Shown here piece by piece: positions 28,763-32,323 of a stretch of 64,000 nucleotides of DNA. The notes beneath the pieces are model-generated. The model was given only the letters and a program-made list of their open reading frames with translations, made no database searches and was not told the DNA's origin. Location: positions 97,340,001 through 97,404,000 of the forward strand of contig OZ024740.1 in the NCBI GenBank assembly GCA_964016885.1, in the 5' to 3' direction. How positions within the stretch are numbered: the stretch's first letter is position 1; each line of letters opens with the position of its first letter. The DNA comes from Eledone cirrhosa. Its lineage: Eukaryota. Made by a program: the position numbers and the translations under genes.

Positions 28763-30106
28763 ATGTCTGGAAAGCAGCACATGAAATCAACAGAATCAGA
28801 AAGAATTCTAAAGGAGATATCATCGAAATTATCAACACTTATCACGATGATGGACACACAATGGTCTATTTTAAAGGAAATAGAAAAACAATCTACAGAC
28901 GGAAAACTTATAACTGAACATATAAACTCTGAAATTAAGAATTTAGCTGAAATTATACCAACAGTTATCAAAGATACAAGAGAAAGCCTACCACAACCCC
29001 CTTGGATGTCAGAAATAAACGAAAGAAATTTGGAAAACAAAACACATCGAATAAGAAAAGAAATGTGGAAGATATGGAAAAAATTCCTTAACATAAGAAA
29101 ACAAAATTTCTGGAAAGCATACAAATGCGAAAAATGGGTCGAAACACATTCGAAATGGCTCTCTCTAACGGCACCCATACTCCCTCATAAATACCTAATT
29201 ACAGAAATTGCAGGAGAACCAGAAGAAGAAACAAAACTCCGATGGGAACTTACATTGACAAAATTCAGGACCGACATCTCCATTTCTGAATGTAAACAAT
29301 CCCGCTACAAAGCCAGATATGAAGCTATTGATGACCAAGTTGAAATTTCAAAGCTAACGACTGGTATTATAGCTGAAAAACTACGAGAACTATGGATCGG
29401 AGATATCTCAAAAGAAGAAAACAAATCAAGAAAGGTATGGCAGCAGAAACAATTATTTCTCGACGAATATGCTGCAAATTACGGTAAAGACTCTGGAACC
29501 CTGAGAAAAAGCATTAAAAGTGGACAATCTCATCAACACAACATACGCCAGAACACGTGCCAACACAAACACTCACCTTACCTTGAATCAAAGAAGAACT
29601 ACGGTAATAACTCTTCGCTTTTTCTACAAAAACACCCTATCGCACACAACATGAACAAAAAGCACAAACACGATAGATACTCCTTTGACCAGACCATGAG
29701 AAGTAGTAAAACCAGGAGATCATTCTCAAGATCTCAACAGAGACTACCAACAAGGAATGTGGAAACAAAACGTAGAATAACCAGATCACTCTCAAGATCT
29801 CAACAGAGATTGCCCACAAGAAACTGGACGAAAGAACGATCTAAACCTGAAAGCAAACCTAGGTCATTTCCCCATGTTGTTAAAAATAATGCTAACAGTA
29901 AGAAAAACAATATACAGAATACCAAAAATAGGACAAAATACATAACGAAACCAAATATAATATCACGACCAAAAGTTCATCAAGCGAACACCAACAGGAA
30001 TATAAATCCTGAACAGAGAAAAATCCATTTTTTAACGTCAGGACAACAAAAACAGGAAAAAGAAAAACTCCAGGAGGAAACATACCCAAAACAACTGTAC
30101 ACGTAG
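28763..30106 (+). CDS. PLE ORF1 (447 aa): Trp-rich helical domain plus basic R/S/K/N-rich tail
   Basis: Intact ORF between the pLTR and RT; aligns by eye with 42768-43706. Confidence 0.85.
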   Translation: MSGKQHMKSTESERILKEISSKLSTLITMMDTQWSILKEIEKQSTDGKLITEHINSEIKNLAEIIPTVIKDTRESLPQPPWMSEINERNLENKTHRIRKEMWKIWKKFLNIRKQNFWKAYKCEKWVETHSKWLSLTAPILPHKYLITEIAGEPEEETKLRWELTLTKFRTDISISECKQSRYKARYEAIDDQVEISKLTTGIIAEKLRELWIGDISKEENKSRKVWQQKQLFLDEYAANYGKDSGTLRKSIKSGQSHQHNIRQNTCQHKHSPYLESKKNYGNNSSLFLQKHPIAHNMNKKHKHDRYSFDQTMRSSKTRRSFSRSQQRLPTRNVETKRRITRSLSRSQQRLPTRNWTKERSKPESKPRSFPHVVKNNANSKKNNIQNTKNRTKYITKPNIISRPKVHQANTNRNINPEQRKIHFLTSGQQKQEKEKLQEETYPKQLYT

Positions 30107-32323
30107 ATACTAAAATAATTAATTTATCTAAAAGAGATCTTGACAAAGATGAAATGAAATTCCGTCAAAAGGACTGAAATTCACACGGACTCCAAGAACT
30201 GAAGGGGGATACCCAAGAATTCTGTCGAAAATTACGTCTTGTAGAATTCTTCGCTGATAAAAATAATGAGAGTGATGAATCACTATTAAAGAATAAATCA
30301 AATTTCACTCCGCCAAAAGGAAGAAATATCTATCTCGACCAATACATTGACATCCTGTCTAAATTTCCTCTTAGACATAATACTAATGTTAGGCCAACAT
30401 TAACAAATCAGAAATGTCTGCACTTAAACGTATACAAAATGATAAAACAATAATAATTAAACAAGCAGATAAAGGGGGTGCAGTTGTTATAATGGATACT
30501 AAATACTACAAGGATTTGGTTGAGGAACAACTGAAAGACACAATATTCTATCATGAAATAACGTCAAATATAGACCACAACATCGTGAAGAAGATCAACA
30601 ACCTGGCTTCAAAATACCACAACTCATTTACTGATAAGGAAAGAGACTACATCACCAATTTTGAGCCGAAACCCAGCAACCTGTATGGCCTACCGAAAGT
30701 TCATAAGTCAAAAGAAATACAACTGGCAGTAAGAGAACAAAACAGTGAGTACATTAAATTATTACACCCAAAAGACTTAAAACTTAGACCTATTATAGCT
30801 GGTCCAACATGCCCCACCCACGGTCTAAGCAATTTTGTTGACATTATTTTGAAACCACTATGTATTCACATACCCAGTTTCATCCGGGATGATATCAACT
30901 TCCTATCCCATCTTCCCAAAACCACGGAAACGAATTCACTTCTACTCAGTTTTGATGTGGTAAGCCTTTACACCAACATTACACATGATTTAGGAATAAA
31001 GGCGGTTAAATACTGGGTGGAAAAACACAGAGAAGTGATTACCATTAGATTCACAGCGCCATTTATATTAGACGCAGTTAAACTTATTCTGGAAAACAAC
31101 ACTTTCTTCTTCAATGGAAAGAATTACATTCAATTTAGAGGCACAGCGATGGGAACGAAGTTTGCTCCCGTTTACGCGAACTCTGTAATGGGATACTTAG
31201 AACAACAAGTCTACCAAGAAATAGAGGAAAAATATAGTATTGACTTTAGAAAGTACATTGAAAAATCTTGGAAGAGATACCTTGACGACTGTTTCATCAT
31301 CTGGACAGAATCTCTAGATACTCTGGATTAGTTCAATATCCTCCTGAATAACCTACACCCATCTCTTCAATTCACAAAAGAGATGAGTAGGACCAAATTA
31401 CCATTCCTAGATATAATGATAATCAAAAACGACACCACCATTACCACGGATATATATTATAAACACACAGACACCCATCAATATCTGAATTTTAAGTCGT
31501 GCCATCCACCTCATATAAAACGCAACATCCCATACTGCCTAGCCAGAAGAATTTGTACCCTTGTAGAAGATACGAATACCAGGTACAAACGCCTAACAGA
31601 ACTAAGAGAATTTTTGCTCAAACAAAAATACCCATCTCTACTTATAGAAAATGGCATACAGCGGGCTATAAAAATATCTATACAACAACTTAGGACAACC
31701 CAAGGAAGAAGAAACCAAGAACTGGTCATACCATTTATAATGACACACAACCCATGTCACCAGAATATCTTCAACACTGCCAAAGCAAACCTGCCGATCA
31801 TTGCTCAAAGTAATGAATTAAAAGGCTTAATCACAGATCGATCTTTGACTCTTAGTAAAAGACAGTCAAAAAATTTGAAGCAATTACTAACAAAAGCAAA
31901 GTTTGACCTTAACAACAAAGACCAATCATTCACTGTATCTAAATGCAATGATAGTCGATGCGGCACATGTCAATCCATACACCCCGGTCAATATATGAAA
32001 AGAAAAACTGGAAAAATATTCCCAAATGCAAATATGAACTGCAAAAGCAGAAATCTAATTTACTGCATTAAATACCCGAATTGTGAAGAACTATATGTCG
32101 GTCAAACAGGAAAGGCACTATCGGAATATGCACGGGTACACCGTCAACAAATCAGAGACCCAAATGTCCGTCAGATACCCTTAAGTAACCATCTAGCAAC
32201 ATGTGGTCAGGGAATATTTATAATATTCCCATTCTCTAAATTACACAGCCCAAGTTAAATCAAGAGAAAAATCAAAGAAAAGAATGTTATTGATAAATTC
32301 AAACCCAAGCTAAATGAACAATA
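30028..32323 (+). pseudogene. RT-GIY-YIG ORF2, copy 2
   Basis: Same lesions as copy 1. Confidence 0.92.

Follow-up and report, generated by a model that had tools for sequence, protein, structure and literature searches.

The DNA analyzed here, a stretch of 64,000 nucleotides (nt) from Eledone cirrhosa (contig OZ024740.1, positions 97,340,001 to 97,404,000; hereafter the window), contains a head-to-tail array of a Penelope-like element (PLE) that we call family A. A U UUU UUA heptamer recurring in this array is the site where a first open reading frame (ORF1) overlaps the frame of a reverse transcriptase (RT) and endonuclease (EN) in a Neptune-type Penelope-like retrotransposon, and sequence comparisons make it highly probable that a programmed -1 frameshift at this heptamer joins ORF1 to RT-EN. 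At this site two frames overlap, the heptamer is in the appropriate phase, and the RT frame reaches its first motif without a start codon; the arrangement is conserved across families, whereas no 3' RNA structure is. Ribosomes slipping back by one base on U UUU UUA would produce a little ORF1-RT-EN fusion and much free ORF1 protein, the predicted fusion measuring ~1,190 amino acids (aa), i.e., 426 ORF1 residues through Phe-Leu followed by the RT frame.

The junction is best described in the second unit of the array (copy 2; Table 1), whose ORF1 begins with a conserved, predicted helical N-terminal region of ~260 aa and closes with a basic, low-complexity tail ending in HFL plus 23 aa. A first-pass annotation of the window had located TTTTTTA in ORF1 phase at 30028 and also at 25843, 34216, and 38401, and positions and phase hold: all four family A heptamers read (CA)T TTT TTA in ORF1 phase. 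These four sites count as one observation because they are copies of one local tandem array. The surrounding layout is likewise as first described, with the -1 frame closed by TGA 30010 six codons upstream of the heptamer, no ATG in that frame up to the RT N-terminus (the first, at 30154, lies downstream of IINLS), and an ORF1 stop, TAG, ending at 30106.

Table 1. Features of the ORF1/RT-EN junction, of the family A array and of the neighboring family B copy (window coordinates)
Feature	Position	Strand	Basis or remark
ORF1 of copy 2, 447 aa from ATG	28763..30106	+	
TGA closing the -1 (RT) frame upstream of the slip site	30010..30012	+	6 codons before the heptamer
Slippery heptamer U UUU UUA, ORF1 phase	30028..30034	+	same site at 25843, 34216, 38401
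A-rich dual-frame stretch, 69 nt, heptamer to ORF1 stop	30035..30103	+	no stable fold predicted
ORF1 stop TAG	30104..30106	+	23 codons past the heptamer
IINLS, first conserved motif of the RT N-terminal region, -1 frame	30115..30129	+	
Broken RT-endonuclease of copy 2	30130..32325	+	deletions near 30157, 30192, 30396; TAG 31329; TAA 32256
Head-to-tail array, family A Penelope-like element	25068..41787	+	self-BLAST; comparison with intact copy L062
RT-GIY-YIG region of copy 4	38401..40699	+	RVT_1 and GIY-YIG matches; sole break, a 14-nt deletion near 38566
Hammerhead-like core (CUGAAGA...GAAA), repeat between units	28527..28549; also 32715, 36900, 41089	+	motif scan
Decayed copy of family B, homologous ORF1 and RT-EN	42741..46070	+	46% RT identity to family A
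U UUU UUA of family B	43787..43793	+	window copy with a 2-nt deletion behind the heptamer

Copies of family A elsewhere in the genome keep this arrangement. A DNA search in which the best 40 of 660 candidates were scored left 30 loci, 29 of them outside the window; heptamer and phase are kept in all 29, and the -1 frame remains open to the end of the locus (671 codons or more) in 23. In intact copies, ORF1 spans 449 aa from its ATG and the RT-EN frame 775 codons, its first Met being codon 48; ORF1 and RT in one frame were looked for and found in no intact natural copy. Pfam matches to RVT_1 (E value 2.9e-6, below the curated cut-off) and to GIY-YIG (above the cut-off) were obtained for the intact natural copy L062 and for copy 4 of the window. 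The ORF1-RT-EN fusion proposed in the first-pass annotation is supported by these natural copies; the four window copies cannot make the full fusion. Compared with L062, all four share a 14-nt deletion, to which copies 1-3 add two 1-nt deletions and a TAG in frame. As a result, copy 2 reads 49 codons of the -1 frame before meeting TGA 30175. The window copies could therefore yield at most ORF1 and a truncated fusion.

Because a sample drawn by similarity to family A favors look-alikes, a second search was run by RT motif. The GLKFTPTP pattern gave 1740 matches (control, 1), of which the first 30 loci were taken, the junction playing no part in the choice. TTTTTTA was in phase in 19 of these, off phase in 4 and lacking in 7, several of the loci without the heptamer being visibly 5'-truncated or point-mutated. 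They represent six families and one decayed single copy. In-phase TTTTTTA occurs in all six families, whose RTs are 43-70% identical to one another, and further pattern searches of the genome retrieved mostly decayed copies of the same six. One of them, family B, is also present in the window, where it owns the fifth CATTTTTTA, at 43787-43793; it is a diverged Penelope-like family of the same layout. In the other genomic copies of family B, the heptamer lies in ORF1 phase with the ORF1 stop 30 nt downstream. The heptamer is present in 29/29 family B loci, and the -1 frame is open to the end in 14 of the 28 anchored ones.

The layout extends beyond this genome. An RT alignment search retrieved 80 metagenome loci and 17 loci from metagenome-assembled genomes (MAGs), all presumably eukaryotic contamination, and 68 of the 97 reach the RT N-terminus. 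The closest named RT matches come from bivalves, and a search of viral contigs returned no relative. In a quick RT tree of 65 rows, from which 3 short sequences and 6 near-duplicates had been omitted and which contains no named references, 38 rows form a single-ORF clade. In none of the 46 loci of this type does a long ORF1 with an in-phase heptamer overlap the RT frame; in the intact ones, the RT frame opens with Met and an N-terminus of ~160-170 residues. Outside this clade, 19 of the 22 metagenome or MAG loci have an ORF1 that overlaps the start of the RT frame and bears an in-phase heptamer; the three exceptions are L094, the cut locus L079, and L124, which belongs to the L072 family and has decayed. 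ORF1 is homologous throughout the clade of the window families. Conservation of heptamer and phase, the check put forward in the first-pass annotation, was thus found from the family A loci through the six families to their metagenome relatives.

Sixteen of these metagenome or MAG loci, with T6R or TTTAAAC, and the six families of the Eledone genome together give 22 junctions for comparison; among the 16, nine end or are disrupted too early for the endonuclease to be assessed. Each of the 22 carries the in-phase X XXY YYZ sequence of a classical -1 signal: TTTTTTA in 17, TTTTTTG in 3, and TTTAAAC in 2. In-phase TTTTTT(A/G) is thus found in the overlap of 20 junctions, vs. 0.08 expected from the all-phase rate in RT ORFs, or 0.19 from the same-phase rate (0.00041 x 465 positions). 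The slippery variants seen across the relatives are UUUUUUG, UUUAAAC and, in three endonuclease-less loci (L117:1194, L130:1215, and L134:1232) of the same two-frame layout, AAAAAAC; in L130 the stop also lies 30 nt behind the heptamer.

Met is absent upstream of the first RT motif in 16/22 junctions, family A included, which bears on the possibility that RT-EN is made apart from ORF1 by reinitiation or from an internal start at a downstream ATG or non-AUG codon, the heptamer being incidental. An ATG does precede the first RT motif in the six other junctions, and killifish Neptune is described in an excerpt of PMC12602865 as having two non-overlapping ORFs and no frameshift. Nevertheless, 16 junctions, that of family A among them, have their first ATG only after IINLS, a motif whose Asn does not vary among 47 aligned RTs, and an incidental heptamer would not stay in phase in 20/22 junctions; separate initiation is therefore extremely unlikely. 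Among RT homologues with the GLKFxP motif, 100/106 start no more than 90 aa from the motif, and the other 6 are NCBI gene models.

The sequence of the junctions also bears on splicing, in which the U-run would be the pyrimidine tract of a 3' splice site, spliced RNA joining an upstream exon to RT and unspliced RNA giving ORF1. PLEs are known to carry introns, according to the accessible text of PMC8557442, 14/22 junctions read TTTTTTAG, which resembles a splice acceptor, and the first AG is in the same phase in 17/22, including family A. However, an adjacent AG is absent from 8/22 junctions, family A among them, the first AG is in another phase in 5/22, and the UUUAAAC and AAAAAAC variants are slippery yet form no pyrimidine tracts. 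Moreover, ORF1 always crosses the site in the single phase needed for a -1 slip, though the tails cannot be aligned, and the distance of 10 codons to the ORF1 stop that recurs among these elements (see below) is unexplained by splicing. A G after UUUUUUA is found in HIV-1 too (PMC6547452, in part). On these sequence features, we regard splicing as very unlikely.

A frame restored in RNA, through the addition of one U to the U6 run by RNA polymerase or by the RT of the element, appears barely credible, even though the conserved core is a homopolymer run and a database protein (P0148) reads FFF directly into the RT start. Six U is short for polymerase slippage, the UUUAAAC variants and the stop spacing are unexplained by an added U, and T7 versions would be retrotransposed and hence common, whereas T6 is found in 29/29 family A and 29/29 family B loci. 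RT slippage at the HIV site is the subject of a title in the reference list of PMC6547452, and counts among the points in favor of such restoration.

An independent view of a -1 frameshift comes from the ORF1 proteins themselves. A profile of the conserved ORF1 domain matched 1226 representatives of 50%-identity clusters, of which the best 150 were examined; 101 of these have tails of at least 60 residues. Phe-Leu, the 0-frame reading of UUU UUA/G, occurs in 83 of these tails and lies within 43 residues of the end in 78, and control dipeptides show no such peak near ORF1 ends. Codons for Lys, Gln, Glu, Met, and Trp cannot end in U and so cannot supply the first U of the heptamer; none of these residues precedes Phe-Leu (0/76, with slightly different domain ends, against a background of 19%; P about 1e-7). 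Within the family A protein, the tail holds 46 Lys or Arg vs. 10 Asp or Glu, and together with the helical domain this suggests a role in RNA binding or scaffolding. Comparisons of ORF1 returned no Pfam family above the cut-off, no convincing match among solved structures (best E value 0.0096) and only Atlas matches under 0.9; a single-sequence AlphaFold model was too poor for use (predicted local distance difference test score, pLDDT, 47). A search for natural ORF1-RT fusions longer than 700 aa gave 1 match among 8000 candidates and no RT fusion, a weak form of evidence. In Mytilus, gene model P0105 follows ORF1 through HFL and then jumps to an RT motif, skipping IINLS, which its sister model P0082 keeps; P0105 probably carries a false intron bridging the frameshift site.

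A stem-loop or pseudoknot 5-9 nt downstream, the other component of a classical -1 signal, was not found. As the first-pass annotation had noted for the window, no clear stimulatory hairpin follows the heptamer: across the 22 junctions, windows of 40, 60, and 90 nt fold no better than shuffles (mean z about 0), and values below -2 were obtained in only 2, 1, and 1 of 22, respectively, from the related pair L086/L139. The intact family A copy gave z of +0.4 to +1.0, and a scan for simple H-type pseudoknots, which leaves long-range pairings outside its reach, returned 0/22 junctions vs. 90/880 controls. An upstream fold in family A (z -2.7) was set aside, being confined to 1/22 junctions.

Several observations weigh against the proposed slip. 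L094, a close relative, shows no such junction; Phe-Leu is absent from 18 of the 101 ORF1 tails, some of which are probably cut and some of which have Phe-Phe; and the related pair L086 and L139 does have a 3' hairpin. To these must be added the upstream ATG codons of six junctions and the acceptor-like sequences with their phased AG, mentioned above.

The position of the ORF1 stop codon follows a pattern of its own. In the DNA set, the stop lies 0, 0, and 1 codons past the heptamer, nine times 10 codons past it, and otherwise 11-31 codons past it, never 2-9. A spacing of exactly 10 codons occurs in 6/16 lineages (P 0.002 for any single value reaching 6), between which the spacer sequences are mostly dissimilar. 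In the protein set, the stop comes exactly 10 codons past Phe-Leu in 27/78 and closer in none, with P about 1e-4 for none below 10 if stops are taken to occur at a composition-matched 0.032 per codon and no more than 20 lineages are counted as independent. On a fast tree, the 10-codon state is present on both sides of the midpoint root and requires 10 changes, at least 5 of them forced; the spacing is therefore probably ancestral and kept by selection rather than reinvented.

We propose, with somewhat less than even confidence, that the stimulator in this clade is the pause imposed by termination at the ORF1 stop. With the stop 10 codons on, translocation of the heptamer tRNAs would bring a trailing ribosome up against the terminating one, with its A site 30 nt short of the stop, the distance at which collided ribosomes stand. 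The terminating ribosome would itself cover the positions 2-9 codons before the stop, leaving no room there for a queued one, and with the stop 0-1 codons on, the slipping ribosome would pause at the stop. Footprints of mouse disomes peak at 59-60 and 62-63 nt (bioRxiv 10.1101/710061, in part). In E. coli reporters, a ribosome stalled at a stop stimulated -1 slips in the trailing ribosome, with a peak at 9 codons from A site to A site, as described in the available sections of Smith et al. (2019, PMC6815119). In SARS-CoV-2, the position of the stop matters through another cause, namely the refolding of a pseudoknot (PMC8168617, in part).

For family A, whose stop is 23 codons away, either a longer queue or the intrinsic slipperiness of U6A combined with the supply of Leu-tRNA(UAA) could account for slippage. 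Structure and tRNA supply also set the regime of HIV U6A, which gives FLR and FFR products (PMC6547452, in part). The close relatives of family A likewise have spacings of 22-23 codons, and a C-terminal motif, [EDQN]TxxKx[IVLM], is found in 11/84 tree rows belonging to two groups, with spacings of 22-40. In the family A lineage, this peptide could slow termination and lengthen the queue. Alternatively, the ORF1 tail of family A may serve a separate purpose, with U6A sufficing for the slip. That a large EN+ PLE clade uses a natural, collision-programmed -1 frameshift, the family A lineage having lengthened the spacing and gained a C-terminal peptide, is a tentative proposal that we hold to be rather less likely than not to be right in full.

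A number of facts count against the queue. The spacing is shared among related elements by descent; it is 23 codons in family A and exactly 10 in only 2/6 families of the Eledone genome; and in families C, D, and E (19-31 codons) the stop is formed by the Lys-Ile codons of the RT motif. The distance between A sites, taken with the heptamer in the P and A sites, is 11 codons here, whereas the E. coli reporters peaked at 9. If the ORF1 protein needed 10 or more residues after Phe-Leu, the lower bound would follow, but not the 10-codon peak. The reading of 57, 60, and 93 nt as multiples of the ribosome length was rejected, the stops of families C, D, and E being made by these same RT-motif codons.

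The base following the stop was also inspected. A C directly after a stop codon makes a weak termination context, which would suit a queue. It is found in 7/9 junctions with 30-nt spacing (L064, L303, L072, L073, L077, L086, and L139, often as CA), vs. a background of 17%, and in 0/10 junctions with longer spacing; this comparison is post hoc and the sample small.

As to classification, family A has the organization of an EN+ PLE with a C-terminal endonuclease, RT being followed by a GIY-YIG domain with CCHH residues. The CX2-5CxxC finger lies upstream of GIY-YIG, and its spacer is long in Neptune, short in Nematis and absent in Poseidon (PMC8557442, in part), and the arrangement found here, CNDNRCGTC, 23 residues, C..NLIYCIKC, agrees with Neptune when compared by eye with the rows of Fig. 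S2 of that paper, whose available text calls Neptune paraphyletic. Further Neptune-like traits are the spacing of GIY-YIG, the RT4 sequence GTAMG..FAP.YAN (by eye, Figs S1-S2, PMC8557442), the (TA)n-rich surroundings and possibly the tandem array with its candidate hammerhead-like core. What differs is an ORF1 of 400-450 aa, without Pfam or PDB match, that overlaps the RT frame at a conserved -1 site. Canonical EN+ PLEs are called single-ORF in the abstract of Craig et al. (2021, PMC8557442) and are contrasted with two-ORF EN- PLEs in an excerpt of PMC6431247; intact family A copies depart from this type by their two overlapping frames and the lack of an ATG before IINLS. Nor does family A fit Athena/Coprina (EN-), which lack an endonuclease and are associated with telomeres, since GIY-YIG is present and its copies are dispersed over many contigs.

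A second endonuclease-bearing group among the relatives (L082-L085, L089, and L095) has a longer ORF1 of 600-840 aa. The C-terminal ~170 aa of this ORF1 are a conserved domain that carries the sequence IIGDSN, resembles an esterase to the eye and has no Pfam match; the ORF1 stops of the group lie 0, 0, 1, 10, 11, and 14 codons past the heptamer. Esterase ORFs are mentioned in Neptune-like PLEs in the available parts of PMC5408684 and PMC3905857.

Three known systems invite comparison. First, according to the legend of Fig. 1 in PMC8557442, a frameshift accompanied by a pseudoknot can set ORF1 apart; the legend does not say in which clade, and the places shown of the supplement to that paper hold no frameshift note for Neptune. 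The first-pass annotation had linked such ORF/RT frameshifts only to endonuclease-less Athena/Terminon elements. The elements described here resemble these two-ORF PLEs in their predicted helical or coiled-coil ORF1, probably joined to RT by a frameshift, and differ in having an endonuclease and, instead of a pseudoknot or conserved hairpin, a stop-distance rule. Second, family A shares with HIV-1 gag-pol the same U UUU UUA, mostly followed by G (PMC6547452, in part), and presumably an excess of structural protein over fused polymerase; in contrast, it is not a virus, has no downstream stem-loop, and has an ORF1 without detectable Gag likeness. Finally, as in the E. coli collision reporters (PMC6815119, in part), a heptamer lies about one ribosome length before a stop without RNA structure. 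Those reporters are engineered and bacterial, whereas the present candidate case is natural and eukaryotic, has 11 codons between A sites (10 after translocation), and leaves family A unmatched. A literature search found no paper on a frameshift in an endonuclease-bearing PLE or on the stop spacing, key figures and Repbase notes lying outside its reach.

The array itself comprises a 5'-truncated copy 1, copies 2-4, and a terminal partial repeat, with a period of 4185-4189 bp and units 98.6-99.9% identical to one another by self-BLAST. It is mosaic: a 6-nt ORF1 deletion is present in copies 2-4 and absent from copy 1, and copies 1, 2, and 3 share two 1-nt RT deletions that copy 4 does not have. 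Copies 2 and 3 have the look of hybrids produced by unequal crossover from a tandem that first held two copies; being 99.9% alike, they could also reflect an assembly duplication. By motif scan, a candidate hammerhead-like core occurs at every unit boundary; Rfam gave no match for it at the gathering score.

Other repeats accompany the array. A 316-bp tandem repeat (2.3 copies, 97% alike; 41787-42508) adjoins its end, and broken minus-strand copies of another Penelope-like type are found at 17061-19269, 56540-58308, 5598-7161, and 60486-61367, the first of them flanked by inverted low-complexity repeats. The RT4 motif of this type, FDITMGSSDS, is similar to the Hydra rows of Fig. S1 in PMC8557442 (in part).

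The surprising part of these results is the absence of an RNA stimulator together with a 10-codon stop rule, which family A fits indirectly. If a large EN+ branch makes its RT as a rare extension of a hitherto unrecognized ORF1, its consensus proteins miss some 400 N-terminal residues, and an abundant structural protein, with 1226 profile matches at 50% clustering, has been overlooked. Should the collision reading be true, RT output would rise with the ribosome load on the element RNA. Stimulation by collisions was found to be shown only in engineered bacterial reporters, and the stop-distance rule offers a cheap and direct test of ribosome collisions as a natural stimulator of frameshifting in eukaryotes.

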